Part shown: piece by piece, positions 1 through 13,875 of the stretch
Numbering within the stretch: the first letter of the stretch is position 1
Layout of the letters: each line of letters starts with the position of its first letter
From: Candidatus Omnitrophota bacterium
GTDB taxonomy: Bacteria > Omnitrophota > Gorgyraeia > JABMQH01
Length of the DNA stretch: 64,000 nucleotides
Assembly: GCA_028715645.1 (NCBI GenBank)
Contig: JAQURK010000002.1
Location: 756 to 64,755, forward strand
Reading direction: 5' to 3'
Program-made: the position numbers and the translations under genes
Notes under the pieces: generated by a model
Databases searched by the model: none
What the model saw: the letters and a program-made list of their open reading frames with translations, nothing else
What the model was told of the DNA's origin: nothing

Positions 1-95
1 TCAAGGATTTTTATCATGACCTTAAGGCTTTCCGCCTCGTTATAAACCGGTAAAAAAATCGACAGTTTCCGGAACCCCATATTTATATCAGCCAT

Positions 96-545
96 TTATA
101 ACCCGCCTTTGCTTCCTGATGCCGCCGGCAAGACAATTTTATCGTTTTCAATACCTGCATAGGGCCCTTGTTTGGCTGTAATACATTCAACATCCTCTAA
201 AACCCTTATCGCATGGCCCCCGTTCATAAGAAGAACCGCATCGCCTTTAGTTACGATAACTTCCCCTTCCTTGATTCCTTTGCTGTTAAAAAAATCTACC
301 GCTAATTTACCTTTAACGATATAGAGCATCTGAAAGATATCCGCTTTAATATTAATTTTCTGGTGGGTATGCGGGGCTTCCAGGTATCCGGCCTTATGCG
401 CTATTACACCAAACTGCATGGGGCTCTGCGGCCCTGTAAAAAAATCTGACTTTTCAGCCGCAAAACCTTTTCTTATGACTATAGCGTAATCCAATTTATT
501 AAAAGTTATTTTATCGACATGCATATTGCCATTATAATATGTCAC
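96..545 (-). CDS. Cupin-fold protein (WbuC-like), linked to polysaccharide biosynthesis
   Basis: 149-aa ORF. Small beta-rich protein with His-containing cupin-like motifs. Sits at the edge of a sugar-biosynthesis cluster. Confidence 0.55.
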   Translation of the reverse strand: MTYYNGNMHVDKITFNKLDYAIVIRKGFAAEKSDFFTGPQSPMQFGVIAHKAGYLEAPHTHQKINIKADIFQMLYIVKGKLAVDFFNSKGIKEGEVIVTKGDAVLLMNGGHAIRVLEDVECITAKQGPYAGIENDKIVLPAASGSKGGL

Positions 546-2686
546 CGGGTCAAGTCAAGAAAAATGGGATATATAAACTTCGCCAATTTCTTTCCTATAA
601 TATCGCATCCTGTTTCATTAAAATGGGTAGAGGTGTTAAGCGGGTCATATTCATACATATTTCTATCCGGTTTTGTGAACATTTCATTGAAAGTATAAAT
701 TTTAAAACTATTATTTAATAAAACCTCGCGCTGCCAGTCTTCAATAAAGCCGGTGGCTACCAATGGTATTTTATGGTCCTTGGCTGTGTTGGCGAAATCA
801 CAAATATATTTTTTCCAGTTGTCGTTGCCAAGCATATAATGATATCGTGGAGGGACTCGATCCTTGGTGCGGGGAGGATGGGGCAGATGCACGGCGGTCT
901 CCCTGTCCTTGTCGGCCCTCGCTGTCCCTGTCAATCCTTCAATAAAAAGCAGTGCGTCTGTATAATTTTGTTCAAACCAACTATAAAAAAATTTCTCAGA
1001 CACGGCAGAGTATATAAATCTCTTCCACAAGAAAACCAATATATAACTTTTGTACACCATGTGATTTAAAAGTTTATTTTCAGGCTGGATATAGTTGCAT
1101 ACATGGGTATCGTTTATCGCGATTTGGAGAATAATCAAATTTGGATTAAAACGCAAGGCCCTGGTTTTAAGCAGTTCGATCTCCTGGGAGGTATTATAAC
1201 CCGGCACGCCGAAATTTAATACCTTGATCTTTACGTCTTTATTAAGGGTACTTAAATAATTTTCCATTATGTTGGGGTATGTATTATGCCAATCCTTCAC
1301 AGAGCTGCAAAAGGTATGGGAATCGCCTATCACGGCGATAACATAACTGCCGCTCAAATCCCTCATATCAAATTCATCCTGGCGCATTCCAAAACTGTTG
1401 ACTTGAGGGTACGCCGGGTTAAGTTCGTAAACAAGCTCTGGGTTTTTGCTTGAGACGTAGATAGATACCGGCTCTTTATATCGCAGATAAACTTCGGCTA
1501 TCAGAAGAATACTAAAAAATATAATTAGCATTTTTTTATATTCTCTAAGTTTGGAGGAGGCGGCAATTAATGAGGCCCTGATATCGGGCATCAATTCCTT
1601 TGTCAAAATTGCAATAAAGTACAAATGGAAAATTGTTCTAATGAAACAGGCCGGGGTCAGCAGGCTTTCCTTAAATCCGTCATAAGCGATAGGAAAATGA
1701 AAATACGTCGCAAAATCAAAAAGGGCTATCGGCACGATATCCTTCCAATTTCGCGCTCGCAGGATGAGAAATGGCGTGACCCATAAAATCCATTGAGGCG
1801 AATAGAATTTTGCAAAAAGCATAAACACCAAAATGGAAAGGGCCGCCCAGCGGATTATTTTTTGAAAAGAATCTATTTTACTAATCGCGGTTAACGGCAT
1901 GACTGCAAATTGAAGCATAAAAAATATAAAATACCAGATTTTAGTTTTTGATGTGACGCCCACCAGATACAGCAGGTAAAAAAAGGACTCCGCATTACAC
2001 CCTCTCCTCGCCTGAATTACATATGGAATTAAACAGGCCCTAAGCCCCCCGGTTAAAAACGTAGTAACTACTGCGGAAAAAATAACAAGAAAAAACATCG
2101 ATAATGCAACCACATCGATTTTTTTAAGCCGATAATATTGAAAACTTAAAAAAATAGGCAAAAGAACGAGCAGATACCATTTGGCTAAAATGCCCAATGA
2201 CAGGACAAGGATGGCCGCTTTGTGCCTGTTCTCTGATAAAAATTTTACGCTTAAGAGGCTTAAAAATACAGGGAAGATGTCATATCTGTAAAGTGAAAAA
2301 TAGAGCGACGCGGGCAAAAACATGGCTAATGCGAAATATCTGTGGTCTCTCCTTAGACGGTATAACAGTATCACGGAGGCCAAGAAAAAAATAAGCATAA
2401 TAGCCGAAAAAATGATCGAATATCCCTGGACCGTATAATTAATTCTTAAAAGGGAAAGTAGAACGTGCGGCACCGCAAATAGGCATACTGCAAGCTGCGG
2501 GTATTCAGAACCTATATCCTTATATGGAACTTTCTTAAGAGGATACCACATCCCTTCGTCATGATAGCGCTTTCTGTCACAAGGATCGTTCAAAAACCTT
2601 ATACTATGGCCCTTTTCCGCGTAGTACAACAGACCTATAAAAAGTAAAATAAAAATCAGAATGATTAAAATCCAATGATTTTTCAT
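542..2686 (-). CDS. Polytopic membrane protein fused to a C-terminal SGNH/GDSL hydrolase domain (possible glycan O-acyl modification enzyme)
   Basis: 714 aa. The N-terminal ~400 aa are strongly hydrophobic, with roughly 11 predicted TM helices. The C-terminal part carries GDSL/SGNH blocks (VIGDSHT; GVPGYNT; D..THFNETG). Overlaps the neighbouring gene by 4 nt. Confidence 0.6.
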   Translation of the reverse strand: MKNHWILIILIFILLFIGLLYYAEKGHSIRFLNDPCDRKRYHDEGMWYPLKKVPYKDIGSEYPQLAVCLFAVPHVLLSLLRINYTVQGYSIIFSAIMLIFFLASVILLYRLRRDHRYFALAMFLPASLYFSLYRYDIFPVFLSLLSVKFLSENRHKAAILVLSLGILAKWYLLVLLPIFLSFQYYRLKKIDVVALSMFFLVIFSAVVTTFLTGGLRACLIPYVIQARRGCNAESFFYLLYLVGVTSKTKIWYFIFFMLQFAVMPLTAISKIDSFQKIIRWAALSILVFMLFAKFYSPQWILWVTPFLILRARNWKDIVPIALFDFATYFHFPIAYDGFKESLLTPACFIRTIFHLYFIAILTKELMPDIRASLIAASSKLREYKKMLIIFFSILLIAEVYLRYKEPVSIYVSSKNPELVYELNPAYPQVNSFGMRQDEFDMRDLSGSYVIAVIGDSHTFCSSVKDWHNTYPNIMENYLSTLNKDVKIKVLNFGVPGYNTSQEIELLKTRALRFNPNLIILQIAINDTHVCNYIQPENKLLNHMVYKSYILVFLWKRFIYSAVSEKFFYSWFEQNYTDALLFIEGLTGTARADKDRETAVHLPHPPRTKDRVPPRYHYMLGNDNWKKYICDFANTAKDHKIPLVATGFIEDWQREVLLNNSFKIYTFNEMFTKPDRNMYEYDPLNTSTHFNETGCDIIGKKLAKFIYPIFLDLTR

Positions 2687-2697
2687 ACAAGGTCCAA

Positions 2698-2856
2698 TTA
2701 AAATATGGCGTAAATAAACGGGGCTACTGCGGATCCTTCGCTAAATATAATCAAAAAGCTGGCTAATATCAGGATTATTATTATTGGCAGAAGCCAATAC
2801 CTTTTCCTGCATCTTAAGAATTCCCATAATTCAGCGACCAATTCAAGCTTACTCAT
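2698..2856 (-). CDS. Small membrane protein, DUF5989/SxtK-like (copy 1; absent from the ORF track because it is under 60 aa)
   Basis: 52-aa ORF MSKLELVAELWEFLRCRKRYWLLPIIIILILASFLIIFSEGSAVAPFIYAIF. Resembles the short 'ELWEFL...RKKYWLLPI...GSAVAPFIYTLF' peptides that accompany carbamoyltransferase/SxtJ genes. A tandem paralog follows. Confidence 0.5.
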   Translation of the reverse strand: MSKLELVAELWEFLRCRKRYWLLPIIIILILASFLIIFSEGSAVAPFIYAIF

Positions 2857-2872
2857 CTAATCTCATATTATT

Positions 2873-3031
2873 TTAAAAAAACGTGTACAGAAAAGGAGAC
2901 AGAATCGAGCTTTCGGTAAATATAATTAAAAGGCCTAATAACAGAAGAACTATTACTATTGGTAAAAGCCAATATCGTTTCCTGTATTTTAAAAATTCCC
3001 AAAGTTCCCTGACCAGCCGAAATTTACCCAT
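2873..3031 (-). CDS. Small membrane protein, DUF5989/SxtK-like (copy 2, tandem paralog)
   Basis: 52-aa ORF MGKFRLVRELWEFLKYRKRYWLLPIVIVLLLLGLLIIFTESSILSPFLYTFF. About 70% nucleotide identity to the adjacent copy across a ~115-nt unit. Confidence 0.5.
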   Translation of the reverse strand: MGKFRLVRELWEFLKYRKRYWLLPIVIVLLLLGLLIIFTESSILSPFLYTFF

Positions 3032-4043
3032 TCAACCTTCTTTTCCCTATCATCAAAAAAAGTCCCCCTTCCCTATGGCCTGTAAATACAAGTCTGCCTT
3101 GCGCTGTAAAATGGCTTAGGGCATTTCCCCTTGGAGATGCCCTGAACAGGCGTTCCTTTTCTGAAAAAGGTTCGAAGGTTATCTTTGGTATGCTATTTAC
3201 AAAATCAAAGCCTGTCTGGTCAAACCATCTCAGCACCTCTCCAACCGTATGTTTCGATTCATGGGGGTTTTTATACTGGTCAAGAAACCAGGTATTTTTC
3301 TTAACGCCTCCCGTATCTTTCCGTTTTAACTGTTTATCGAAAATCACTGATTTTTCGCCAAATACACTGAAGACAAGCCGCTGGATATCCGTTGCCAGTC
3401 GCCCATATCTATTGTACAGGCCCACCATTATAAATCCGCCTTTTTTTACAAGCCCGGCTATGGACTTAAATCCCAAAAATGGATCGCTGGTATGATGGAG
3501 AACGCCGTTGCAGATAACAAGCGGGAAACTCTTCTCTTTAAATATGGGCCTGAAAAGATTCATCTGATAAAACCCGGCGTTCCTTAGATCGTTTTTTTCC
3601 TTAAACTCCTGCGCCAACCGCAAAGAATTTAAACATATGTCGGCCCCAAACACGCGCCTGTTTGCGATGCCCAAAAAATTGCTTAACTGTCCTGTCCCGC
3701 ATCCGACCTCAAGCACCCTTATGTTAAAAGGTATCTGCTCATTAAGCATGCGCGCAAAAAAACCCTTCTCGGCCTTGTTGACCAGATCGCCCGCGTCTTC
3801 CAGATCGTCGTAGTTTGGAAATGGCGTCTTTTCATAAAAGGATTTTATAACCGAGGTGACATCGCCTTGTGATTCGTCCCAATCATTCGGCCAAAAAAGA
3901 AGAGGCACCCCGCCCTCAAAGCGGTAATTATTTCCGCATCCCTTGCACCTTATGGCGCCAGAGAACATCTCTAATCCGCCGCTGCATATGGGGCATATAA
4001 AAATCTCCATATTTTCGAGCATATGGGTCATTGGCGAGCTCAT
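3024..4043 (-). CDS. Class I SAM-dependent methyltransferase with an N-terminal Trm112-like zinc ribbon
   Basis: CPICSGGL...CKGCG zinc-ribbon motif, followed by a Rossmann SAM-binding motif (VLEVGCGTGQLS). Confidence 0.7.
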   Translation of the reverse strand: MSSPMTHMLENMEIFICPICSGGLEMFSGAIRCKGCGNNYRFEGGVPLLFWPNDWDESQGDVTSVIKSFYEKTPFPNYDDLEDAGDLVNKAEKGFFARMLNEQIPFNIRVLEVGCGTGQLSNFLGIANRRVFGADICLNSLRLAQEFKEKNDLRNAGFYQMNLFRPIFKEKSFPLVICNGVLHHTSDPFLGFKSIAGLVKKGGFIMVGLYNRYGRLATDIQRLVFSVFGEKSVIFDKQLKRKDTGGVKKNTWFLDQYKNPHESKHTVGEVLRWFDQTGFDFVNSIPKITFEPFSEKERLFRASPRGNALSHFTAQGRLVFTGHREGGLFLMIGKRRLNG

Positions 4044-4044
4044 G

Positions 4045-4809
4045 TCAGGCTGTCCCCCTGTAATAGTCTTTTCTGCTTAATGATCTCTCAAGCCATAGGT
4101 ATAGAATGATAAACAGGTACCTTGATCCCATCTCTCCTATATTCCATTTTGACACACCCTTGATCCTGCCGTACCAATTTGTTGGCACCACACACCATCT
4201 ATATCCTCTTACAATAGTCTTTAGCGGCATTTGTACCGTCAGATTGAAATGGCAGGAGATAAGTGGCTGCATCCCCGCTATGGCTTTTCTTGAATAACAC
4301 TTAAAGGCGTTGGTAACATCATTATAAGGCAGCCAGAAAAGAATCTGAATAAAAAGATTGCCTATTCTGTTTAATAAAAACTTGTGACGGGGATAGTTAA
4401 TAACCCTGGCCTGACGGCAAAATCGTGTCCCAAAAACGCATTCGAATCCTTCCAGAATTTTTTTGTAATATTTAATAATATCACTCGGGTCATCTGAAGA
4501 GTCCGCCATGACAATAACAACCGCCTCGCCCCTTGCGAACTCAAGGCCGCGGCGCACGGTGTACCCGTATCCCGGGGCATAAATGTTCTTTACTAATTTC
4601 ACCCTTGAGTCTTTTTCAGATATACGGTTTATTGTCTCGGCGGTCTTATCGGTGCTGTGGTCATCAATCACTATTATCTCAAAAGGTATTGCCTCGGTTT
4701 CCAAAACCCCCGTAATCCCCTGGAGCGTATTCGGCAAATTACCGGCCTCATTGTGGGCTGGGATTACAACCGATAATAACGCCCCTGATTTGTTATTATT
4801 GGATTGCAT
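4045..4809 (-). CDS. Family 2 glycosyltransferase (polyprenyl-phosphate sugar transferase-like, DPM1/GtrB type)
   Basis: LSVVIPAHNEAGNL...VIDDHSTDKT...D.D motifs typical of GT2. Confidence 0.8.
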   Translation of the reverse strand: MQSNNNKSGALLSVVIPAHNEAGNLPNTLQGITGVLETEAIPFEIIVIDDHSTDKTAETINRISEKDSRVKLVKNIYAPGYGYTVRRGLEFARGEAVVIVMADSSDDPSDIIKYYKKILEGFECVFGTRFCRQARVINYPRHKFLLNRIGNLFIQILFWLPYNDVTNAFKCYSRKAIAGMQPLISCHFNLTVQMPLKTIVRGYRWCVVPTNWYGRIKGVSKWNIGEMGSRYLFIILYLWLERSLSRKDYYRGTA

Positions 4810-4811
4810 CG

Positions 4812-5213
4812 TTAAAATTGCTTTTCATATTGCGCCGGCTCAAGGACCTTCTTGCGGGGTCTTGCAATCCAATATGACTCCTTTACCCTATCCATCTTCA
4901 AACCCAGCAAATCCTTGCCTGTCAGCCTCATGAATAAACCAATCGGCAAAAAAATCAAATAGAAAATCAATAACAGCAGAAACTTCGTATTTAACCAGCC
5001 GATGATATGCGCAATACGCATCCATACCTTGTAGATAGGCCTTAAGATTGAGGGCGCGACCAAACCCGCTATGCCAAAGGCGCTTCCTGCTATCACAAAA
5101 TATATCCAGGTCATAGGCTGGCCCTTGAAACAGAGCCGAATACTGAGAGCCAAAAGTATGCTTCCCAATATAAGGCCAAAGCTGCGTAAATTTTTACCTT
5201 CTGTTTTAGCCAT
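4812..5213 (-). CDS. SxtJ-like small membrane protein, carbamoyltransferase-associated
   Basis: 133 aa with 3-4 predicted TM helices. Lies immediately downstream of the carbamoyltransferase gene, matching the conserved sxtI-sxtJ-sxtK-type arrangement. Confidence 0.45.
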   Translation of the reverse strand: MAKTEGKNLRSFGLILGSILLALSIRLCFKGQPMTWIYFVIAGSAFGIAGLVAPSILRPIYKVWMRIAHIIGWLNTKFLLLLIFYLIFLPIGLFMRLTGKDLLGLKMDRVKESYWIARPRKKVLEPAQYEKQF

Positions 5214-5219
5214 TGATTT

Positions 5220-7037
5220 TTAGTCTAATTCAAACTCCTTTCTCCAATCGGTCTCTTCTTGAACATACCTCTGCTTGTGTTTATCCAAAAGAAAGCTCCC
5301 CATCACCAGGTAATCCATGTTTGTACGCATGAAGCAGCGGTAGGCCTCTTCCGGTCGGCAGACTATCGGTTCTCCTCTTACATTGAAGGAGGTGTTAATT
5401 ATCACCGGACAGCCGGTCTTTTCGTAAAATTTTTTTATGAGCGCATAATATACGGGGTGCTCCGTTTCTTTTATTGTCTGGATTCTGGCGGAGTAATCCA
5501 CATGAGTTACCGCCGGTATCTCTGAGCGAGCTACATTCAATTTGTCTATCCCGAACAGACTCTCCTGTTCCCCGGTAATCGCTATTCGCTTTTCTTTGCG
5601 CACGGGGCTTACCAAAAGCATATAAGGGCTGTCCTGTTCCATCTCAAAGTATTCGGAGACGCTTTCGCTCAAGACCGTCGGCGCAAATGGTCTGAACGAC
5701 TCCCTGAACTTTATCTTAAGATTCATAACGGACTGCATCTTTATTGAACGGGCGTCGCCGATGATGCTCCTTGCGCCAAGCGCCCTTGGGCCAAACTCCA
5801 TCCTTCCCGAAAACCAGCCGATGACCTTTTCCTGGCTTATTAGTCCGGCGACGGTTTCCAGAAGGGCATCCCTGTCTAATTTATTATGCGGTATAGACCT
5901 CTCCTTTAAAAAGGCTTCTATCTCTTGATCGGTGAAACTGGGGCCCAGGAGAGAGGCTTTCTGTGAATCAGTCACGCCATTTGACTTCCTTTCGTTGCCA
6001 AGATACTGATACCAGATAAAAAGGGCTGTTCCTAACGCCCCGCCCGCGTCCCCTGCCGCAGGTTGTATCCAGATATTCTTAAAGGGTCCGTCTTTTAAAA
6101 TCCGGCCGTTTCCGACGCAATTTAACGCGACCCCGCCGGCCAGGCACAGATTGTCTTTTCCCGTTTTCTTATGGACGCGCCTTGCCGACCTGAGCATAAT
6201 CTCCTCGGTAACAACCTGTATTGACCTCGCCAAATCCATGTCTTTCTGCGTAATTTTTGATTCGGGTCTTCGCGGAGGGCCGCCAAATAATTTGTCAAAC
6301 CGTCGATTCGTCATCGTGAGCCCGACCGCGTAATTAAAATATTTCATATTCATTTTAAAAGAGCCATCTTCCTTTAAATCCAGGAGTTCACTTAAAATCA
6401 TATCCACATATCTGGGCTTCCCATAAGGAGCGAGCCCCATTACCTTGTATTCCGCGGAATTCACCTTGAATCCCGTATAGTAGGTAAAGGCGGAATATAA
6501 AAGCCCCAGTGAATGCGGAAATCTCTGCTCTTCCAGTAATTCAATTCTGTTTCCGTCTCCCACACCAAAACTTGAAGTATCCCATTCACCCACAGCGTCC
6601 ATTGTCAATATCGCCGCGTCCTGAAACGGGGACGGGAAAAACGCCGATGCGGCATGGGATTCATGATGCTCTGGAAAAATAAGCTTACCCTTGTAATTCA
6701 ATTCATTACTGATGAAATCTGACATCCAGAGCCTCTGCTTAATCCAGATAGGCATGGCCTTCATAAAAGAGCGGATACCCCACGGGCTGTTTGCCAGATA
6801 CGTAAAAAGTATTCTCTCAAATTTTATAAAAGGCTTCTCATAAAAACCTATGAAGTCAACATCGCCTATGCCGATCCCACCTTCTTTCAGGCAATAGGCA
6901 ATCGCATTTTTAGGAAAATTGGCGTCGTGTTTTTTTCTTGTAAACCTTTCTTCCTGGGCGGCGGCCACTATCTCGCCGTCCTTCACAAGGCAGGCGGCCG
7001 AATCATGATAAAAACAGGATATCCCCAGAATATTCAT
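5220..7037 (-). CDS. Carbamoyltransferase (NodU/CmcH/SxtI family)
   Basis: 605 aa. The N-terminus MNILGISCFYHDSAACLV...PEHHESHAASAF is the Kae1/YgjD-like carbamoyltransferase domain, and a C-terminal YrdC-like domain follows. Confidence 0.85.
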   Translation of the reverse strand: MNILGISCFYHDSAACLVKDGEIVAAAQEERFTRKKHDANFPKNAIAYCLKEGGIGIGDVDFIGFYEKPFIKFERILFTYLANSPWGIRSFMKAMPIWIKQRLWMSDFISNELNYKGKLIFPEHHESHAASAFFPSPFQDAAILTMDAVGEWDTSSFGVGDGNRIELLEEQRFPHSLGLLYSAFTYYTGFKVNSAEYKVMGLAPYGKPRYVDMILSELLDLKEDGSFKMNMKYFNYAVGLTMTNRRFDKLFGGPPRRPESKITQKDMDLARSIQVVTEEIMLRSARRVHKKTGKDNLCLAGGVALNCVGNGRILKDGPFKNIWIQPAAGDAGGALGTALFIWYQYLGNERKSNGVTDSQKASLLGPSFTDQEIEAFLKERSIPHNKLDRDALLETVAGLISQEKVIGWFSGRMEFGPRALGARSIIGDARSIKMQSVMNLKIKFRESFRPFAPTVLSESVSEYFEMEQDSPYMLLVSPVRKEKRIAITGEQESLFGIDKLNVARSEIPAVTHVDYSARIQTIKETEHPVYYALIKKFYEKTGCPVIINTSFNVRGEPIVCRPEEAYRCFMRTNMDYLVMGSFLLDKHKQRYVQEETDWRKEFELD

Positions 7038-7966: not shown

Positions 7967-9285
7967 AATCTGACCAGATTTTTAGCTTTTATGTTTTTAT
8001 AAACATTCCGGGTGTCAAACACTATCTTTGAATTCTTAAGTATCTCCTCATAGTCAACTGAAGAATGGTCCGTGATAATAACAACACAATCCTTATCGCG
8101 GAACTTCCGTATGTTCCACGCCATGGATCTGAAGCAATTGCCGTCTATCTTTATCTCGGAGACATAAGGGTCAAAGAACGAAACAACCGCGCCTTTTTTC
8201 TCCAAAAGCCTTATGATCTCGATGGAAGGCGACTCCCTTGTATCATTTACGTCCTTCTTGTAAGAAACCCCCGATATAAGTATGCGCGAGCCTGAAAGCG
8301 GCTTACGGGCCTTATTCAGGATCTCCGCTATTCTTTTTACGACATATTCGGGCATGTAAGAATTGACCATATCGGCAAGTTCTATAAAACGCGCCTCGAA
8401 CCCATGCAGCCTTGCCTTCCATGAAAGGTAAAGAGGATCTATTGGTATGCAATGGCCCCCCAGACCCGGGCCCGGATAAAACGGCATAAAGCCAAAGGGC
8501 TTGGTCTTTGCCGACTCGATTACCTCCCAGACATTTATATCGAGCTTGTGGCACATCAACGCTATCTCGTTTACCAGGCCTATATTTACGCTCCTAAAGG
8601 TATTTTCAAGCAGTTTGACCATTTCGGCGGTCTTTGCGGAGGAAACTACCATGACCGTTCTTATGACCTGCTTGTAAAACAGCTGCCCGAGTTCAGCCGA
8701 TTTTTTTGTAACCCCGCCCACTACCTTGGGGATGTCCTTTGTCTTGTATCTTATGTTGCCGGGATCCACCCTTTCCGGCGAAAATGCGAGGAAAAAATCC
8801 GTATCGAGTCTCATCTTGCTTTTAGAAAGGGCCGGTAATACCACTTCATCCGTTGTCCCGGGATACGTAGTGCTTTCAAGGATTATAAGCTGCCCCTTCT
8901 TCCGGTGGCGGGCGATCTCTTCGGCGGCATTGACTATATACGAGATATCCGGTTCCCTGGTTTTCCTTAATGGGGTAGGGACGCAGATAATTATCACGTC
9001 CAGTTTTTTTACCGCCCTGTAGTCCGCCGCGGCGGAAAAAAGCCCCGCGTCCATAATGGCCCTTATATCCTCATTAGTGACGTCAAGGATATAACTTTTC
9101 TTGTTTTGCAGGGCAGTTACGCGTGACCGGTCAAGGTCTACCCCGGACACCTCAAAACCCTTCTTGGCAAATTCAACGGCCAGCGGAAGGCCTACATAAC
9201 CTAGGCCTATAACGCCCAGCCTCGCCTTTTTTGTAACGATCTTATTTTTTAACCTTGAGTACATTTTTTTAATTCCTTCCACCAC
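7963..9285 (-). CDS. UDP-N-acetyl-D-hexosamine 6-dehydrogenase (TviB/WbpA/WecC family nucleotide-sugar dehydrogenase)
   Basis: GVIGLGYVGLPLAVEFAKKG N-terminal NAD-binding motif with a catalytic Cys region. 440 aa. Confidence 0.75.
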   Translation of the reverse strand: MVEGIKKMYSRLKNKIVTKKARLGVIGLGYVGLPLAVEFAKKGFEVSGVDLDRSRVTALQNKKSYILDVTNEDIRAIMDAGLFSAAADYRAVKKLDVIIICVPTPLRKTREPDISYIVNAAEEIARHRKKGQLIILESTTYPGTTDEVVLPALSKSKMRLDTDFFLAFSPERVDPGNIRYKTKDIPKVVGGVTKKSAELGQLFYKQVIRTVMVVSSAKTAEMVKLLENTFRSVNIGLVNEIALMCHKLDINVWEVIESAKTKPFGFMPFYPGPGLGGHCIPIDPLYLSWKARLHGFEARFIELADMVNSYMPEYVVKRIAEILNKARKPLSGSRILISGVSYKKDVNDTRESPSIEIIRLLEKKGAVVSFFDPYVSEIKIDGNCFRSMAWNIRKFRDKDCVVIITDHSSVDYEEILKNSKIVFDTRNVYKNIKAKNLVRL

Positions 9286-10217
9286 TTTTCATTCATCTGA
9301 TACCACTCTACTGTCTCTTTAAGGGCTTCATTAAAGCTTTTTTTAGGCCGCCAGCCCAGCGCCTTTACCTTTTCGCAATTTACGGCGTACCTCTTATCAT
9401 GGCCTGGGCGGTCTTCGACGAATTTTATGAGCGACTCCGGCTTTCCCATAATAGCCAGGATCTGCCTGGTCAGGTCTATATTTCGCATTTCGGATCCGCC
9501 GCCTATATTGTAAATTGCCCCGGCGTCTCCCTTATGGAGCACCGTGTCTATGGCCGCGCAGTTGTCCTCGACATACAGCCAATCCCGGACATTTAAACCG
9601 TCCGCGTAGACAGGCAGGCTTTTATCTTGAATGGCGTTGGTTATAAACAAGGGCATCACCTTCTCCGGGTACTGGTAGGGCCCAAAATTATTAGACGACC
9701 TTGTTATGAGGACAGGTGTTTTGTAGGTTATAAAATAAGCCCTGCACAGGAGGTCGGCGCTTGCCTTGCTTGCGGCGTAAGGGCTGTTTGGTCTTAATGG
9801 GTCCGCCTCCGTGAATTTGCCTTCCGCGATGCTGCCATAGACCTCGTCTGTCGAGATCTGGATATATCTTTTTACGCCGTTCTTCCTGACCGCCTCAAGC
9901 AAGGCGTGGGCCCCATCCACATTTGTGACTATAAAATCCGTGGCGTCTTTAATCGATCTGTCTACATGGGTCTCCGCGGCGAAATTAATTACGGCGTCAC
10001 AGCCTTCGGATCCCTTTAAGACAAGCTTTTCGTCGCAAATATCCCCTTTTATAAACCGGTAATTTTTATCTGTCTCTATTGCCTTAAGGTTCTTCCTGTT
10101 TCCCGCGTAGGTCAGTTTATCGAGGTTTATTATCTTGTAGGAAGGGTGTCTTTTTAGCAAATAGCGTATAAAATTTGAACCGATAAATCCGCAGCCGCCT
10201 GTAATTAATAGTTTCAT
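9249..10217 (-). CDS. rfbB: dTDP-glucose 4,6-dehydratase
   Basis: MKLLITGGCGFIGSNFIRYLL..., 322 aa. Classic RmlB family. Confidence 0.85.
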   Translation of the reverse strand: MKLLITGGCGFIGSNFIRYLLKRHPSYKIINLDKLTYAGNRKNLKAIETDKNYRFIKGDICDEKLVLKGSEGCDAVINFAAETHVDRSIKDATDFIVTNVDGAHALLEAVRKNGVKRYIQISTDEVYGSIAEGKFTEADPLRPNSPYAASKASADLLCRAYFITYKTPVLITRSSNNFGPYQYPEKVMPLFITNAIQDKSLPVYADGLNVRDWLYVEDNCAAIDTVLHKGDAGAIYNIGGGSEMRNIDLTRQILAIMGKPESLIKFVEDRPGHDKRYAVNCEKVKALGWRPKKSFNEALKETVEWYQMNEKWWKELKKCTQG

Positions 10218-11323
10218 TTCAGCAATGTTACTATAAATTCCTGCTGTTCCCGGGTCAATTCTGGATACATCGGTATCGCGAGCGTCTCTCTAGAGGCGCC
10301 TTCCGCCTCAGGGAAATCGCCTTTCTTATATCCCAAGTATTTAAAACATTCCTGGAGATGCAGGGGGATGGGATAATATGTCCTCGCGTCCACGCCGTTT
10401 TCGTTAAGCAGCCTTTCCGCGGTGTCTCTCTTTCTCTTATCCTTAAACCTTATGACGTATAAATGGTACGTATGGAATTTGCCCTTTGGGACAAAAGGAG
10501 TTATGATACCAAGGGGGCCCAATCTCTCGTCATAAAAAGCGGCCAGAGACTGCCTTTTTGCATTCCATTCGTCAATGTATTTCAGCTTCACCCTTAGGAT
10601 AGCCGCCTGGATGGTATCCATGCGGCTATTGTGGCCGATAACCGTATGCCGGTACCTTATCTTATTCCCCTGATTGCGGTAGATCTTTAAGGTATCGACG
10701 CACCGCGCGTCATCCGTTAAAACCATGCCCGCGTCGCCATAGGCGCCAAGGTTCTTTCCGGGATAAAAACTGAAGCAGCCCGCGTCGCCCATTGAACCCG
10801 CCTTTTTGCCGTTAAAGGCCGCTCCGAATGCCTGCGCCGCGTCCTCAACAACCTTTATATTATATTTCTTCGCTATTTTTAAAATTTCTCCCATGTCGGC
10901 CATTTGGCCATAGAGATGCACGGGAATCACCGCCTTGACCCTAGATCCTGCACTCTTGACCTTTAATAATTTCTCGAGTCCCTCTGGCGAAATATTATAC
11001 GTCCGGCGGTCCATATCGCAAAAAACCGGTCTTGCCCCGCACCTTGCTATGGCCCCGGCCGTCGCGAAATAAGTAAACGCGCATGTTATAACTTCGTCGC
11101 CTTCCTTTACCCCAAGGGCCTTAAGCGCAAGTAATATGGCATCTGTCCCGTTCGCTACCGCACAGGCATATTTTTTGCCGGCATATCTTGCGACCTCTTC
11201 CTCAAATTTATTTACGTCTTCTCCAAGTATAAACTGGCAGCTGTCAAGGGCGTCTTCTACCGCGCGCATTATTTCTTTTTTTACGCCGAGATACTGCCCT
11301 TTTAAATCAACTATCGGTATCAT
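10214..11323 (-). CDS. DegT/DnrJ/EryC1/StrS-family PLP-dependent sugar aminotransferase (FdtB/WecE-like)
   Basis: 369 aa. Conserved family motifs including the PLP-lysine region. Confidence 0.85.
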   Translation of the reverse strand: MIPIVDLKGQYLGVKKEIMRAVEDALDSCQFILGEDVNKFEEEVARYAGKKYACAVANGTDAILLALKALGVKEGDEVITCAFTYFATAGAIARCGARPVFCDMDRRTYNISPEGLEKLLKVKSAGSRVKAVIPVHLYGQMADMGEILKIAKKYNIKVVEDAAQAFGAAFNGKKAGSMGDAGCFSFYPGKNLGAYGDAGMVLTDDARCVDTLKIYRNQGNKIRYRHTVIGHNSRMDTIQAAILRVKLKYIDEWNAKRQSLAAFYDERLGPLGIITPFVPKGKFHTYHLYVIRFKDKRKRDTAERLLNENGVDARTYYPIPLHLQECFKYLGYKKGDFPEAEGASRETLAIPMYPELTREQQEFIVTLLK

Positions 11324-12051
11324 TTCAAGCCCTTTAGATTCTTATTGGCCACCAGCATATTCGCCCGCAAGAGAGAATCAAACGTCCCCGAATCCGTCCA
11401 CCAGCCGTCAAGTATATCATAGGTCATCAGCCGCATCTGAATATAGGCGTTATTAACGTCTGTTATCTCCAATTCACCCCGGCCTGAAGGTTTTAGTTTT
11501 TTAACGATATCAAAAACCCTTTTGTCATACATATAAATGCCGGTTACCACATAGTCGGATTTTGGTCTTTTCGGTTTTTCCTCTATGGAAATGACCTTTT
11601 TATTCCTGATTTCCGCTACGCCGAAGCGCCCGGGGTCGTTAACCTTCTTTAGGAGGATCCTCGCGCCCTCTTTTTGAGACTGGAATCTCTCAACTTGTTT
11701 TTTTATGCTTTTTTCAATGATATTGTCGCCAAGCATTACAACTATCTTTTGCCCGTCGGAAAAATGTTCGGCCAATTTTAAGGCCTCCGCGATACCCCCT
11801 TCGCCTTCCTGATAGGTATAATTTATGTGCTTCAGCCCGAAATCGCCTCCATTGCCGAGCAGTCTTAAAAATTCGCCCGCGTGATTGCCGCCTGTAACCA
11901 CAAGGATATCCTTTATGCCGGCATCCACCAGCGTTTGCAATGGATAATAGATCATCGGTTTGTCGTAGATGGGAAGCAGATGTTTATTGGTGATCTTTGT
12001 GAGGGGGTAAAGCCTCTTGCCCAATCCTCCAGCCAGGATTATGCCCTTCAT
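11320..12051 (-). CDS. Sugar-1-phosphate nucleotidyltransferase (short-form glucose-1-phosphate thymidylyltransferase-like)
   Basis: MKGIILAGGLGKRLYPLT...N-terminal signature. 243 aa. Confidence 0.75.
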   Translation of the reverse strand: MKGIILAGGLGKRLYPLTKITNKHLLPIYDKPMIYYPLQTLVDAGIKDILVVTGGNHAGEFLRLLGNGGDFGLKHINYTYQEGEGGIAEALKLAEHFSDGQKIVVMLGDNIIEKSIKKQVERFQSQKEGARILLKKVNDPGRFGVAEIRNKKVISIEEKPKRPKSDYVVTGIYMYDKRVFDIVKKLKPSGRGELEITDVNNAYIQMRLMTYDILDGWWTDSGTFDSLLRANMLVANKNLKGLK

Positions 12052-12054
12052 CTA

Positions 12055-12534
12055 TCATCTCTCCTTGTTTTTCGGGCGGAGCCTGTCCCAGTCATAATAC
12101 TCGTTTTTTACCCTGAACTCATCCGGCTCTTCCCTGTTATATTCCCGGTCTATGCAATTAATGATAAAGGCCTCGCCTTTCAGGCTTTTGAACGCATGGA
12201 GAACGCCTTTGGGTATGGTAATAAAACAGAAATTCTCATCGCCTATCTCAAATTCGTTTATCGAGCCTTTTGTTTCGCTGTCTTCCCTGGTATCGATTAA
12301 AACGAGCTTGATTGAGCCCTTTACGCAGCAGAAAAAATCCGTCTGTTTTTTATGCATATGAAAACTGTCCTTGTCCTTTACGACCCCTTCATATGCGGTG
12401 GTCAGGTATACCTGATTTGGCGGGCAATGAGTCTCAGAGACACGCAATATCTCCATTAATCGGCCGCGTTTATCCGATAATACTTTTAGCTTCTTTACCT
12501 TTACGCCGTCTATCATGACGACCGCCCCATACAC
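12055..12534 (-). CDS. Cupin-type nucleotide-sugar isomerase/epimerase (FdtA/WxcM 3,4-ketoisomerase-like or RmlC-like)
   Basis: 159-aa cupin with His motifs. Clustered with RmlA/RmlB and a DegT aminotransferase, which fits a dTDP-3-amino-3,6-dideoxyhexose route. Confidence 0.5.
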   Translation of the reverse strand: MYGAVVMIDGVKVKKLKVLSDKRGRLMEILRVSETHCPPNQVYLTTAYEGVVKDKDSFHMHKKQTDFFCCVKGSIKLVLIDTREDSETKGSINEFEIGDENFCFITIPKGVLHAFKSLKGEAFIINCIDREYNREEPDEFRVKNEYYDWDRLRPKNKER

Positions 12535-13814
12535 ACGTATTTAAAACCGAGTTTTTTCATCGCGGCGGGCTCATACATGTTCCTGCCGTCAATAATAAGA
12601 GGCTGTTTTAACAAGCCCTTTATTTTTTTCAAATCAAGTTCTTTAAACTCGTTCCATTCCGTTATGATTACAAGGCAATCAGCCGAATCCGCCGCCTCAT
12701 AAGGGCCATTGCAAAATTTTACGCCGCGCAAGACTGACTTTGCCTTTTTCATCGCCTGCGGGTCAAATACCTTGAGCTTGGCGCCCGCCTTTACCAGCGA
12801 GCCGATGATATCCAGTGACGGGGCAAATCTTATATCATCCGTATCGGGCTTAAATGAAAGGCCGAGGATACCTATGGTCTTTCCCTTGACGATCCAGAGA
12901 TTTTCCTCTATTTTTTTCACCAAGAGCCTTTTTTGCGCCTCGTTTATCTTTTCCACCTCTTTAAGCAGGCCGAAATCATAACCGAGTTTTTCCGAGATCC
13001 TGATAAAGGCGGCGAGGTCCTTTGGAAAGCAAAAACCGCCGAATCCCGCGCCGGCGTTTAAGAAACTCTTGCCGATCCTCTTATCAAGGCCCATCCCTAA
13101 AGCGACGTTTTTGACGTCCGCGCCGGCCCTTTCACAGATGTTACTAATGGCATTTATGAAAGAGATCTTCGCGGCCAGGAATGAGTTTGAGGCGTGTTTT
13201 ATAATTTCGGCGCTCTTGATATCGGTGACAACGATGGGCGCGTTAAGCGGCCTGTAAAGTTCCGACAAGAGTTCCTTTGCCTTTTTTGATTCGACCCCGA
13301 GGACGACCCTGTCCGGATGCATGAAATCCTCTATGGCGGAGCCCTCACGCAAAAACTCGGGATTTGACGCGACATCAAAATCGACCTTATGCTTGTTATT
13401 TATTTTAACCGTATGCCTTACCCATTCGCCTGTCTCTACGGGGACAGTGCTCTTTTCAACTATCAGCTTATAAGACGTCATGCACCTGGCGATCTCGCTG
13501 GCAACATCTTCCACAAAAGTCAGGTCCGCTTCGCCGTTATCCCTCGGCGGCGTCCCGACCGCTATAAAAATTATTGAAGACTTCTTGACCCCTTCCTTAA
13601 GGTCGGTCGTAAAACTTATCCTGCCCTTTTTCTGGCTGTTTTTTACGAGCTCGGCCAATCCCGGTTCATATATGGGGATTATGCCCTTCTTTAAATTTTT
13701 TATCTTTTCCTTGTCCACATCTACGCAGACAACCTTATTACCCAGGTCTGAGAAGCATGCGCCTGTAACAAGCCCTACATACCCGGTTCCTATCACGCAA
13801 ATATTCATACTCAA
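12513..13814 (-). CDS. ugd: UDP-glucose 6-dehydrogenase
   Basis: MNICVIGTGYVGLVTGACFSDLGNKV...GGFCFPKD catalytic Cys motif. 433 aa. Confidence 0.85.
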   Translation of the reverse strand: MSMNICVIGTGYVGLVTGACFSDLGNKVVCVDVDKEKIKNLKKGIIPIYEPGLAELVKNSQKKGRISFTTDLKEGVKKSSIIFIAVGTPPRDNGEADLTFVEDVASEIARCMTSYKLIVEKSTVPVETGEWVRHTVKINNKHKVDFDVASNPEFLREGSAIEDFMHPDRVVLGVESKKAKELLSELYRPLNAPIVVTDIKSAEIIKHASNSFLAAKISFINAISNICERAGADVKNVALGMGLDKRIGKSFLNAGAGFGGFCFPKDLAAFIRISEKLGYDFGLLKEVEKINEAQKRLLVKKIEENLWIVKGKTIGILGLSFKPDTDDIRFAPSLDIIGSLVKAGAKLKVFDPQAMKKAKSVLRGVKFCNGPYEAADSADCLVIITEWNEFKELDLKKIKGLLKQPLIIDGRNMYEPAAMKKLGFKYVCMGRSS

Positions 13815-13875
13815 TCCTCTCCTTAGTTATTGAATCAAAATTATATCACAGCATACCGGTCAATTTCCAATAAAA

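Follow-up and report, generated by a model that had tools for sequence, protein, structure and literature searches.

Saxitoxin clusters hold, in sxtI-J-K-L, the same four gene kinds that are encountered in the locus described here (PMC2679770). A carbamoyltransferase, a small SxtJ-family membrane protein, and DUF5989 proteins form a trio in this locus that is homologous to SxtI/J/K of those clusters. The structurally solved relatives of the carbamoyltransferase in the PDB (GdmN, NovN, and TobZ) are all O-carbamoyltransferases.

The trio lies in a 64-kb stretch of DNA from a Candidatus Omnitrophota bacterium (hereafter the window), where an lptD-like gene opens a series of 16 tightly packed minus-strand genes that reaches the window edge, and a 17th gene crosses that edge. 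Comparison with NCBI proteins gave exact matches to those of an Omnitrophica MAG. Profile searches recovered in place every gene listed in a preliminary description of this DNA, all on the minus strand, to which all coordinates below refer. That description had read the genes as producing a carbamoylated or methylated 3-amino-dideoxyhexose that decorates LPS or another glycan. Its interpretation is partly supported, in that the inventory stands and the proposed chemistry is one of several readings.

The lptD-like gene (13876..15990) encodes a 704-aa outer-membrane protein (Pfam LptD, 24.9 bits; cut-off 22.4), and such a gene is also located upstream of Ugd in loci L013, L023, L029, L034, L036, L037, L039, L040, and L041. 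In our preferred reading, the region is a portion of a single long operon that begins just past this gene and contributes to a surface glycan. The cluster is cut by the window edge, because an open reading frame running from position 95, right behind the stop codon of a 149-aa cupin gene, exits the window start. As the operon runs past this edge, an acetyltransferase, a flippase, and a polymerase could lie beyond it.

Nucleotide-sugar genes and two variants of the locus

Two branches of nucleotide-sugar synthesis are represented. On the UDP side, Ugd (12513..13814) is a UDP-glucose 6-dehydrogenase (TuaD model, 578 bits; TIGR03026, 477 bits, above the cut-off). A second, Cap5O/WecC/TviB-like enzyme (7963..9285; TIGR03026, 435 bits) is a putative UDP-HexNAc 6-dehydrogenase. 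The preliminary description had left the choice between TviB and WecC to profile assignment, and the enzyme proves to be closer to UDP-ManNAc dehydrogenases (Cap5O, 8.8e-73) than to TviB, although it reaches no equivalog cut-off among the NCBIfam profiles. Its neighbor is an SDR epimerase (7034..7966) whose best match is TviC UDP-GlcNAcA 4-epimerase (235 bits, cut-off 760; GalE, 192 bits).

On the dTDP side, the reported RmlA-like and RmlB proteins are both present. The former is a short sugar-1-phosphate nucleotidyltransferase of 243 aa (11320..12051; PF00483, 206 bits; TIGR01207, 260 bits, below the 360 cut-off), and the latter is a dTDP-glucose 4,6-dehydratase (9249..10217; TIGR01181, 463.8 bits, cut-off 365.1). 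Between them is a DegT-family PLP aminotransferase (10214..11323) whose reading frame overlaps rmlA and rmlB by 4 nt each. It belongs to the QdtB/WbpE/DesV/WlaRG clade, and its nearest solved relatives with assignable activity are C3-aminotransferases (QdtB at 1.8e-92, WbpE, WlaRG, and DesV), which agrees with its earlier placement in a 3-amino route. C4-aminotransferases are weaker matches by 30 orders of magnitude or more, and the protein is at least 150 bits nearer to the C3 than to the C4 enzymes, ArnB included.

The conserved gene order in Omnitrophota is LptD-Ugd-cupin-RmlA-RmlB-RmlD, from which the window departs in that RmlD is gone and DegT is placed between rmlA and rmlB. This DegT variant, with the trio, is shared by two metagenomic relatives (L040 and L041), whereas the RmlD variant is represented by L013, L014, L020/22, L021, L025, L030, and L036. 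All eight sister loci (seven independent) that reach past rmlB have the order cupin-RmlA-RmlB-RmlD, and RmlD exceeds the TIGR01214 equivalog cut-off in L013 and L014 (311 and 301 bits), the two loci tested.

The cupin (12055..12534; ~150 aa, 153 aa according to NCBI), which the preliminary description called FdtA-like with the recommendation that profiles decide between FdtA and RmlC, passes both PF00908 (59 bits) and PF05523 FdtA (32.6 bits). Its histidine pair supports the earlier label. An FdtA/QdtA-type HxHK motif, with spacing identical to that of FdtA/QdtA, supplies H59 and H61, the equivalents of the FdtA catalytic residues His49/His51, and both are invariant in 26 members of the cupin family. 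The N-terminal half finds only QdtA/FdtA among PDB matches. The C-terminal half is RmlC-like, however, and the overall fold and Pfam score are nearer to RmlC than to FdtA. We therefore consider this cupin to be either a candidate dTDP-4-keto-6-deoxyhexose 3,4-ketoisomerase or a non-canonical epimerase.

An RmlC-like role must be weighed because cupins ~70-77% identical to this one adjoin RmlA-RmlB-RmlD in the sister loci. It is conceivable, albeit rather unlikely in our estimation, that the cupin is the non-canonical RmlC (3,5-epimerase) of the lineage, and that RmlD was lost and DegT inserted. DegT might then yield a dTDP-4-amino-4,6-dideoxy-L-hexose, form dTDP-viosamine directly from the RmlB product, or act on a UDP-sugar route (e.g., on a UDP-4-keto-pentose) such that no 3-amino sugar is made. 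The consistent position of RmlD after rmlB and the lack of any other cupin in the RmlD-carrying sister loci favor this alternative, as do the higher PF00908 score and a Foldseek comparison that places RmlC-type structures above QdtA. Use of a UDP-4-keto-pentose is suggested by the RmlD-variant loci L013 and L020/L022, where DegT adjoins a UXS/ArnA-C-like SDR and Ugd is also present. Against these clues stand the active-site residues. Where RmlC has Lys and Tyr, which together with an Asp we take to be its catalytic residues, HMMER alignment to an RmlC homologue places Asp66 and Ile125/Asn126 in this cupin, and the C-terminal segment bearing the catalytic Asp is missing. The exact HxHK spacing and the C3 affinity of DegT likewise speak against this alternative. 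Nor does the window hold a full rhamnose pathway with a canonical RmlC, the finding that would have undercut the earlier proposal: RmlD was not found in the 64 kb, and the cupin scores 42 bits with TIGR01221 versus a cut-off of 156.

A conserved carbamoyltransferase trio

The NodU/CmcH-family carbamoyltransferase (5220..7037; 605 aa) matches PF02543 at 338 bits and PF16861 at 244 bits (E values of 1e-101 and 1e-73). It is followed by the 133-aa SxtJ-family membrane protein (4812..5213; PF19588, 50.4 bits, cut-off 24.4), for which hydropathy indicates three to four hydrophobic segments. The DUF5989-like partner in the preliminary description turns out to be two tandem genes rather than one, encoding single-pass, SxtK-like membrane proteins (copy a, 2873..3031, PF19451 75.1 bits; copy b, 2698..2856, 79.3 bits) that are 62% identical to each other.

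This trio is a highly conserved and widespread module. The carbamoyltransferase has more than 8000 homologues, the best 120 of which are at least 69% identical over 605 aa, and homologues at this level of identity span Omnitrophica, Scalinduaceae, and a Patescibacteria-labelled MAG. Its neighbors differ from locus to locus. In a Scalinduaceae contig (L042), the trio is solitary, flanked by a GH123 gene on one side and tad pilus genes on the other; in L014 it sits beside an rmlABD set and is accompanied by an SGNH gene; and in L002 it occurs with a GT-C homologue. Because the trio also occurs without sugar genes nearby, its acceptor need not be an amino sugar, and the earlier assignment of an amino sugar as the carbamoylation target does not follow from adjacency.

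Similarly, because all solved relatives are O-carbamoyltransferases, the default expectation is not that N-carbamoylation replaces N-acetylation. A non-acetylated 3-amino-3,6-dideoxyhexose that is N-carbamoylated and/or N-methylated, giving an unusual ureido or methylamino sugar on LPS, seems improbable to us. Its appeal derives from the C3 clade of DegT, the FdtA motif of the cupin, and the joint presence of an in-operon DegT and the trio in three of three loci of the variant. As reported earlier, there is also no FdtC-type N-acetyltransferase in the window or in the orthologous, fully visible loci L040 and L041, and no LbH-type acetyltransferase was found in the 64 kb or in those two loci, although the operon is cut at the window edge. 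The proposal is further weakened by the occurrence of the enzyme, at least 70% identical, in L042 without amino-sugar genes and in L014 beside rmlABD, and by the GNAT and polysaccharide deacetylase genes that lie downstream in L040. Finally, the methyltransferase is missing from L040 and L041, which places it outside the conserved pathway.

The variable neighbors, the solitary trio in L042, and the high identity across phyla might also be explained if the trio is independent of the genes around it and merely parked in a glycan-locus hot spot. Its target would then be some conserved part of the envelope or else a common metabolite, and the genes after it would form a separate GtrB/GtrC-like decoration system. 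We regard this as doubtful. The dTDP-sugar genes adjoin the trio in two differently arranged kinds of locus (that of L014 and that of the window, L040, and L041), and genes peculiar to this genome interrupt the trio between SxtJ and DUF5989 and add another DUF5989 copy, which suggests functional coupling.

A probable lipid-carrier glycosylation cassette

The inserted genes and those that follow the trio constitute an acquired cassette, probably for lipid-carrier glycosylation, that is specific to this genome and partly low in GC (0.33-0.41 across positions 1-3031 versus 0.45-0.485 in the conserved block). Its methyltransferase, GT2, GT-C::SGNH protein, and 149-aa cupin are all absent from L040 and L041.

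The preliminary description had listed a GT2 enzyme and a polytopic membrane protein fused to an SGNH hydrolase. Both are present, but the polyprenyl-phosphate type of the former and the GT-C nature of the latter had been missed, and these change the likely mechanism. The GT2 (4045..4809; 254 aa; PF00535, 82 bits) is of the polyisoprenyl-phosphate (Dpm1/GtrB/ArnC-like) type. At E≤1e-5, its PDB sequence matches are DPMS, GtrB, and ArnC only, and its best NCBIfam matches are PgfS, ArnC, AglJ, and PpgS. Unlike GtrB and ArnC, which have C-terminal TM helices, it has no predicted TM helix. The adjacent class-I SAM methyltransferase (3024..4043; Methyltransf_11, 56 bits) carries an N-terminal, Trm112-like 4-Cys Zn-ribbon that is readable in the sequence as CPICSG...CKGCG (CxxC...CxxC), with weak Trm112 matches.

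The membrane-SGNH protein (542..2686; 714 aa) begins with a domain (1532..2686; residues 1 to ~385) that AlphaFold and Foldseek identify as a GT-C fold resembling PimE, ALG3, and GPI-mannosyltransferase I. Mean AlphaFold confidence in 10-residue blocks is mostly >90 (80-98) over residues ~41-370, and the best 11 PDB matches are all GT-C(B) folds with probability 1.00, including Dol-P-Man and polyprenyl-P-Man enzymes. Some homologues of this domain bear the names GT87 or Gpi18-like, and only one of about nine other loci has a member of this family beside the trio. The remainder (542..1531; residues ~384-714) is a TM-anchored SGNH/GDSL hydrolase domain whose PF13472 score of 32.6 bits is just under the 32.9 cut-off and whose predicted model is poor; GDSH, GxND, and the C-terminal His can nevertheless be read in the sequence. 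Stand-alone SGNH homologues of 336-400 aa begin at the GT-C/SGNH junction with an N-terminal TM anchor. The join spans, and depends on, an A7 run at 1531-1537, and no second example of the fusion was seen. By the positive-inside rule at the junction, the SGNH domain would be located outside.

Two further reading frames lie toward the window start. A metal-type cupin of 149 aa (96..545) has a weak WbuC-like match (TIGR04366, 22.8 bits, cut-off 42), no PDB or Pfam match, and no counterpart in any related locus examined. The gene that leaves the window contributes its first 31 codons (1..95) and probably encodes a GT-A/GT2 glycosyltransferase. This fragment has no Pfam match, and BLASTP aligns it (E 0.001) to the N-terminal motif of the GT2 described above.

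A proposed three-layer explanation of the operon

These components can be assembled into a provisional scheme of three layers, whose chance of being right as a whole we put slightly below even. The gene identities, fold classes, synteny, and conservation on which it builds are demonstrated; its substrates, acceptor, topology, and sequence of steps are inferred. The first layer, shared across the lineage, would supply nucleotide sugars. Ugd would provide UDP-GlcA, the second dehydrogenase and the TviC-like epimerase would provide a UDP-HexNAc uronic acid, and the RmlA-like protein, RmlB, cupin, and DegT would provide a dTDP-amino-6-deoxyhexose, with the aminotransferase filling the place that RmlD has in sister genomes. 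The likeliest product would be dTDP-3-amino-3,6-dideoxyhexose (Qui3N or Fuc3N), with the cupin acting as the 3,4-ketoisomerase.

In the second layer, the soluble, ATP-/carbamoyl-phosphate-dependent carbamoyltransferase would most likely O-carbamoylate a lipid-linked, membrane-associated glycan intermediate on one of its hydroxyls, and the SxtJ and DUF5989 membrane proteins may be its tether or partners. The third layer is the cassette, whose genes suggest that a sugar carried on polyprenyl phosphate is used for glycosylation beyond the cytoplasmic membrane. The GT2 would place a sugar on polyprenyl phosphate at the cytoplasmic face, and the Zn-ribbon methyltransferase, and possibly also the carbamoyltransferase, would tailor that sugar. 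After flipping, the GT-C domain would pass the sugar to an acceptor on the outside, and the anchored SGNH domain would add or remove an ester-type group there. The glycan served would be capsule-type or LPS-linked, and since wzi and wza come after the trio in related loci, the two possibilities are equally likely.

Gene order and boundaries of the operon

The surface-sugar genes at positions 1-15990 all lie on the minus strand, and ORF listing combined with HMM scans places neighboring genes in overlap or no more than ~60 nt apart. In transcription order, an LptD-like gene (13876-15990) is followed by genes for Ugd (12513-13814), whose identity is clear, a cupin of ~150 aa (12055-12534), a short RmlA-like nucleotidyltransferase (11320-12051), a DegT aminotransferase (10214-11323), RmlB (9249-10217; 463.8 bits with TIGR01181, against an equivalog cut-off of 365.1), a nucleotide-sugar dehydrogenase (7963-9285), and a TviC-like SDR (7034-7966). 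Then come a NodU/CmcH carbamoyltransferase (5220-7037), an SxtJ-family protein (4812-5213), a GT2 enzyme (4045-4809), a class-I methyltransferase with a four-Cys ribbon (3024-4043), two tandem DUF5989 genes (2873-3031 and 2698-2856) that are 62% identical to each other, a 714-aa protein joining a GT-C membrane domain to an SGNH domain (542-2686), and a separate 149-aa cupin (96-545). Every gene named in the preliminary description was recovered by this listing and these scans. The remainder of the window beyond the operon is housekeeping.

The operon is cut by the window edge because an ORF (MADINMGFRKLSIFLPVYNEAESL...) that begins at position 95 on the minus strand, right behind the stop codon of the 149-aa cupin, runs off the window at its start. 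This 31-aa ORF has no Pfam assignment, and its start matches the motif found at the N-terminus of the GT2 enzyme in the same operon. Promoter and terminator scans returned counts not above shuffled expectation.

Some neighboring features can be recorded here. The 149-aa cupin has the classical metal-binding HxH...E / H motif; its WbuC match is below threshold, it has no PDB or Pfam match, and its counterpart is absent from all related loci fetched. Upstream of lptD lie a ROK kinase gene and a run of three GGDEF diguanylate cyclase genes, of which one also encodes a GAF domain (16949-20138). Elsewhere, lptD is preceded by two GGDEF genes in related locus L013, from which ROK is absent, and by ROK in L040 and L041. 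An 1101-aa protein (23636-26941) combines a purple-acid-phosphatase N-terminal domain with metallophosphoesterase, PKD, FlgD-Ig, CHU_C (type IX secretion signal-like), and fn3 domains.

Nucleotide-sugar branches

The operon was compared with 24 metagenome loci and several genome loci, supplemented by contig look-ups. The conserved order in this lineage is LptD-Ugd-cupin-RmlA-RmlB-RmlD-dehydrogenase-epimerase(-SDR)-DegT, and RmlD directly follows rmlB in every locus of this type that reaches that far (L013, L014, L020/22, L021, L025, L030, and L036). RmlD was scored in two of them, L013 (311 bits) and L014 (301 bits), and passes the TIGR01214 cut-off in both. The window, L040, and L041 share a second arrangement, cupin-RmlA-DegT-RmlB-dehydrogenase-epimerase-carbamoyltransferase-SxtJ-DUF5989, from which RmlD is absent. 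In the window, DegT overlaps both rmlA and rmlB by 4 nt, and a phmmer search of the 64 kb with the RmlD of L013 found weak SDR cross-hits only. The matching Logan contig (L015) stops inside DegT. Also, L014 carries a SemiSWEET transporter gene between DegT and the cupin (L014:9750-10004); this contig is labeled Patescibacteria, and in score its rml and carbamoyltransferase genes are nearly level with those of Omnitrophota (cupin 73% identical), which could reflect mis-binning or horizontal transfer.

The preliminary description had proposed a dTDP-3-amino-3,6-dideoxyhexose route that lacks an FdtC-type acetyltransferase. A dTDP-amino-6-deoxyhexose branch without such an acetyltransferase is real, is also devoid of RmlD, and is common to at least two relatives. 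No LbH-type (FdtC/QdtC) N-acetyltransferase occurs within the 64-kb window or in L040 or L041, with ~2 kb of contig past the window start unseen. Nor does the window encode a canonical RmlC with a full rhamnose pathway, given the absence of RmlD and a cupin that falls below the TIGR01221 cut-off.

Among solved relatives of assignable activity, the best matches to DegT are C3-aminotransferases (QdtB, 313 bits; WbpE, WlaRG, and DesV, 266-280 bits), ahead of the C4 enzymes perosamine synthase (213 bits), ArnB (155 bits), and the WecE/PglE/PseC types (132 bits or less). By similarity, DegT is therefore a candidate C3-aminotransferase of the FdtB/QdtB kind. Its top PDB match overall is 7B0D, an entry identified by no paper in our literature search. 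A conserved extra SDR, with scores resembling those of UXS (UDP-xylose synthase) or of the C-terminal domain of ArnA, is present in L013, L020/L022, L040, and L041 (e.g., L020:6599-7570). Together with Ugd, this SDR is a hint that the lineage has a branch of the UDP-pentose or Ara4N-like kind. It lies directly after DUF5989 in L040 and L041, and it adjoins DegT in the RmlD-carrying loci L013 and L020/L022, so that a UDP-4-keto-pentose is also conceivable as the DegT substrate.

The dTDP-branch cupin belongs to a highly conserved family of 729 homologues, with 69-100% identity among the 120 listed. The mechanical ORF has a GTG start, encodes 159 aa, and overlaps the end of Ugd at 12513-12534; the NCBI product has 153 aa, homologues begin at an MI(E/D)GV motif, and the real start is probably ~12516.

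In its N-terminal half, this cupin matches only QdtA and FdtA in the PDB, with FHMHKK aligned to FHAHKK of FdtA at identical spacing. Residues H59 and H61 align with His49 and His51 of FdtA, positions marked by the deposited mutants H49N and H51N (2pae, 2pak), and both are invariant across the family, including the 55%-identical copy in L040. The protein scores 32.6 bits with PF05523 (cut-off 23). It also passes the Pfam RmlC-family threshold, but reaches only 42.4 bits with TIGR01221 (cut-off 155.75). Its C-terminal half aligns to RmlC homologues, and comparison with 2b9u puts Asp66 at the Lys position and Ile125/Asn126 at the Tyr position. The chain ends ~10 residues past W149, and the segment bearing the RmlC catalytic Asp is absent. 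The roles of the RmlC His, Lys, Tyr, and Asp used in judging this alignment follow the RmlC literature. Foldseek ranks the uncharacterized 3EJK first and RmlC-type structures next (TMq 0.70-0.75), with QdtA at rank 41 (TMt 0.76); the fold search cannot separate RmlC from FdtA and was set aside as an arbiter.

Overall, the cupin is a mosaic of an FdtA/QdtA-like N-terminal half with an RmlC-like C-terminal half and overall fold. Its residues point to an FdtA-like isomerase, and its synteny with RmlD points to RmlC. There is roughly an even chance that it is a 3,4-ketoisomerase, in which case the branch would yield a 3-amino-3,6-dideoxyhexose. An RmlC-like 3,5-epimerase, the function that its synteny would favor, is the less likely alternative; the protein has neither an equivalog-level RmlC score nor the complete RmlC catalytic set. 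The HxHK His pair and the PF05523 match agree with the original FdtA-like assignment; the C-terminal half, fold ranking, and synteny speak against it. Because a cupin with FdtA catalytic residues occupies the operon place of RmlC, automated reports of a rhamnose pathway in candidate phyla may mislead.

The branch resembles two known systems without matching either. Like the Fdt/Qdt pathways for dTDP-3-amino-3,6-dideoxyhexoses of S-layer glycans and O-antigens, it has an RmlA-like enzyme, RmlB, an aminotransferase near QdtB, and an HxHK cupin. Unlike them, it has no FdtC/QdtC acetyltransferase, its cupin is RmlC-like in the C-terminal half and fold, and orthologues of this cupin sit in rmlABD-type operons. 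With rmlABCD it shares the cupin-rmlA-rmlB(-rmlD) order kept in sister genomes and a cupin over the Pfam RmlC-family threshold, but DegT stands in the operon place of the RmlD missing from the 64-kb window, and the cupin lacks the RmlC catalytic Lys and Tyr and scores far under the TIGR01221 cut-off.

A UDP branch accompanies these genes. The second dehydrogenase clears the cut-off of just one model, the general TIGR03026, and its Cap5O match (8.8e-73) places it nearer by sequence to UDP-ManNAc dehydrogenases than to TviB, one of the alternatives raised previously. Its partner is the TviC-like SDR rather than a WecB-type 2-epimerase. This pair is conserved in sister loci, and its predicted product is some UDP-HexNAc uronic acid. 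A WbpA/B/E-type UDP-GlcNAc3NA route was set aside, as a WbpB-type oxidoreductase is absent.

The carbamoyltransferase, SxtJ, and DUF5989 trio

The carbamoyltransferase contains both family domains (Carbam_trans_N, 338.5 bits; Carbam_trans_C, 244.1 bits) and scores far from the NodU equivalog (139.5 bits, cut-off 1000). The relatives with solved structures, GdmN, NovN, and TobZ, are O-carbamoyltransferases. Among the more than 8000 homologues scored, the top 120 share 69% identity or more, nearly all with a length of 605 aa; they come from Omnitrophica, Scalinduaceae, and unclassified bacteria. The SxtJ protein scores 50.4 bits with PF19588, and the two DUF5989 copies score 79.3 and 75.1 bits with PF19451.

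The same trio is present in L014, L040, L041, and L042, and also in L002 with a divergent SxtJ-like protein. Its surroundings differ from locus to locus. In L040 and L041 it is followed by an SDR, wzi, and wza, which points to capsule-type export. In L014 it comes directly after rmlABD and an SGNH gene, in the Scalinduaceae contig L042 it stands on its own, and in L002 it comes after a GT-C homologue. A 175-aa membrane protein between that homologue and the carbamoyltransferase (L002:11326-11853) is recognized by neither Pfam nor NCBIfam; an SxtJ C-terminal motif (SYW...QF) can be seen by eye, and it is probably a divergent SxtJ. A fixed module of GT-C plus trio was considered and rejected, as a genome scan of the GT-C family placed the trio adjacent in only one of 10 loci (Aminicenantes, L002/L005).

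Because the trio is highly conserved and its neighbors vary, adjacency in the window does not show that the amino sugar is the carbamoyl acceptor. The initial proposal that a 3-amino-dideoxyhexose on LPS or another glycan is carbamoylated or methylated is partly supported: the dTDP-amino-6-deoxyhexose branch is retained, and a link of the carbamoyl and methyl groups to the amino sugar stays hypothetical. LPS is no likelier as the target than a capsule-type glycan. The most economical guess is that the trio O-carbamoylates a membrane-associated glycan intermediate. Our literature search found no paper mentioning DUF5989 and none linking a carbamoyltransferase to undecaprenyl-linked glycans.

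To our knowledge, an acceptor for the trio has never been identified outside saxitoxin biosynthesis. Saxitoxin clusters contain sxtI-sxtJ-sxtK-sxtL, in which the functions of J and K are unknown and SxtL is a GDSL lipase with a proposed role in decarbamoylation (PMC2679770). The window shares with SxtI-SxtJ-SxtK(-SxtL) a NodU/CmcH carbamoyltransferase, an SxtJ-family membrane protein, a protein of ~52 aa, and a nearby GDSL/SGNH component (PMC2679770). The small protein is DUF5989 in the window; SxtK is similar in size, and the two are likened by kind and size. Similarly, the SGNH domain is likened to SxtL as a kind of component. The systems differ in that the window genes sit in a context of glycan rather than alkaloid biosynthesis, DUF5989 is duplicated, and the SGNH domain is joined to a GT-C.

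The distal cassette and a possible lipid-linked relay

In L040 and L041, DUF5989 lies directly behind SxtJ; in the window, a GT2-methyltransferase-DUF5989 insertion occupies this site. Past it come the other DUF5989, the GT-C::SGNH gene, the 149-aa cupin, and the start of another glycosyltransferase. Positions 1-3031 have a GC content of 0.33-0.41 (GC3 0.34-0.43 for complete genes), compared with 0.45-0.485 (GC3 0.54-0.58) for the conserved block at 5220-15990; values for the GT2 and methyltransferase genes (3024-4809) fall in between (GC 0.435-0.45, GC3 0.48-0.50). Given this difference in composition, at least the distal part of the cassette may have been acquired recently.

The sole PDB sequence matches of the GT2 are archaeal DPMS, GtrB, and ArnC (E 1e-15 to 4e-11), which would make it a polyisoprenyl-phosphate glycosyltransferase of the Dpm1/GtrB/ArnC domain type. 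No segment passes the hydropathy threshold for C-terminal TM helices like those of GtrB, ArnC, and archaeal DPMS. Eukaryotic DPM1 is likewise TM-less and needs small membrane partners, being tethered by DPM2 and DPM3.

The GT-C domain forms the N-terminal ~385 residues of the 714-aa protein, and its model has mean pLDDT values mostly >90 (80-98) in 10-residue blocks over residues ~41-370. In a Foldseek search with this domain, the top 11 matches are all GT-C(B) folds at probability 1.00, including GPI mannosyltransferase I, ALG6, ALG3, PimE, ALG9/12, and PIG-U (9wno, E 2e-6, TMt 0.64; ALG3, TMt 0.66; PimE, TMt 0.59). The modeled fold is that of GT-C enzymes with polyprenyl-P-monosaccharide donors (PimE/GT87, ALG3, PIG-M). 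As candidates for the acidic residue that these enzymes conserve in their first extracytoplasmic loop, E61 is invariant and D136 nearly invariant among 24 homologues. Pfam GT87 does not match the window protein; it matches some homologues, and some are named GT87 or Gpi18-like.

The SGNH domain scores 32.6 bits with PF13472 (cut-off 32.9) and displays GDSH, NFGVPG, AIND, and C-terminal THF blocks, with the block-V Asp absent. It has no significant PDB sequence match, and its part of the AlphaFold model is of low quality owing to a shallow alignment in this region. The charge distribution puts this domain, by prediction, outside the cytoplasmic membrane.

With the 714-aa query, 890 proteins match at E<=1e-10. 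Among 1.84 billion representatives, none of the best 150 matches spans both halves, and 34 of those 150 match the C-terminal half only. Stand-alone homologues of that half are TM-anchored SGNH proteins whose N-terminus aligns exactly at the junction. The junction falls on an A7 run (1531-1537; ...tat aaa aaa atg..., 1529-1540, minus strand), and gain or loss of one A would yield two genes in place of the single ORF, one for the GT-C and an overlapping one for a TM-anchored SGNH protein, the arrangement of the stand-alone homologues P0271 and P0270. The fusion may be real, variable (phase variation), or a 1-nt assembly error; whichever way the run is read, the two parts are adjacent and co-transcribed.

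By analogy with polyprenyl-phosphate-sugar relays, the Dpm1-type GT2 would place a sugar on polyprenyl phosphate at the cytoplasmic face, where the methyltransferase and perhaps the carbamoyltransferase, as soluble enzymes, would tailor it at the membrane. SxtJ and DUF5989 may tether these enzymes, as DPM2 and DPM3 do DPM1. The lipid-linked sugar would then be flipped, the GT-C would move it to a surface glycan, and the SGNH domain would handle an ester-type group on the outside. The donor sugar, the acceptor, and the sites that bear carbamoyl and methyl are matters of inference.

Like ArnC/ArnT, GtrB/GtrC, Ppm1/PimE, LgmA/LgmB, and FlmF2/FlmK, the operon pairs a Dpm1/GtrB/ArnC-type GT2 with a GT-C, and like such relays it has possible tailoring enzymes between the two and an envelope-related setting, here beside lptD. 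It differs in that the GT-C is PimE/ALG3-like rather than ArnT/PMT-like and TM helices are missing from the GT2. The window shows neither an ArnA-, ArnD-, or NaxD-type enzyme nor a recognizable flippase. An Arn-type Ara4N system was considered in view of Ugd, DegT, the ArnC-like GT2, and a GT-C beside lptD, and was rejected because the window lacks an ArnA-like SDR, DegT scores well away from ArnB, and the GT-C does not resemble ArnT. The locus is a member of none of the Arn, Gtr, Ppm/PimE, Lgm, and Flm relays; the likeness is one of proposed mechanism only. As in AT3-SGNH O-acetyltransferases (OafA/OafB) and PatB/Ape-type SGNH enzymes, a polytopic membrane domain precedes an SGNH domain that is anchored by a TM segment, probably lies outside the cytoplasm, and would work on a surface glycan, but the membrane domain has a GT-C fold rather than an acyltransferase-3 or MBOAT fold.

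A bolder and quite improbable reading is that carbamoyltransferase, SxtJ, DUF5989, and SGNH constitute a conserved membrane-coupled machine for carbamoylating lipid-linked sugars, of which SxtIJKL is a recruited copy. Working here with a Dpm1-type GT2 and a GT-C, it would attach a carbamoyl to a polyprenyl-phosphate sugar, on either an amine or a hydroxyl, on the cytoplasmic side of the membrane. This carbamoyl could serve as a protecting group or flipping signal, as formyl does in the Arn pathway, with SxtJ and DUF5989 acting as tether or flippase during flipping. The GT-C would hand the sugar to an acceptor outside the cytoplasmic membrane, and the extracytoplasmic SGNH domain would trim or relocate the carbamoyl.

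The locus is built from known kinds of parts in a new arrangement, and its most interesting element is the highly conserved, uncharacterized carbamoyltransferase-SxtJ-DUF5989(-SGNH) module. Omnitrophota and their neighbors are uncultured, often ultra-small or host-dependent, and their surface chemistry is unknown; the locus supplies a concrete set of components, open to testing, for an Omnitrophota surface glycan. Finding the substrate of the trio would assign function to two Pfam families, and could explain the origin of part of the saxitoxin pathway.
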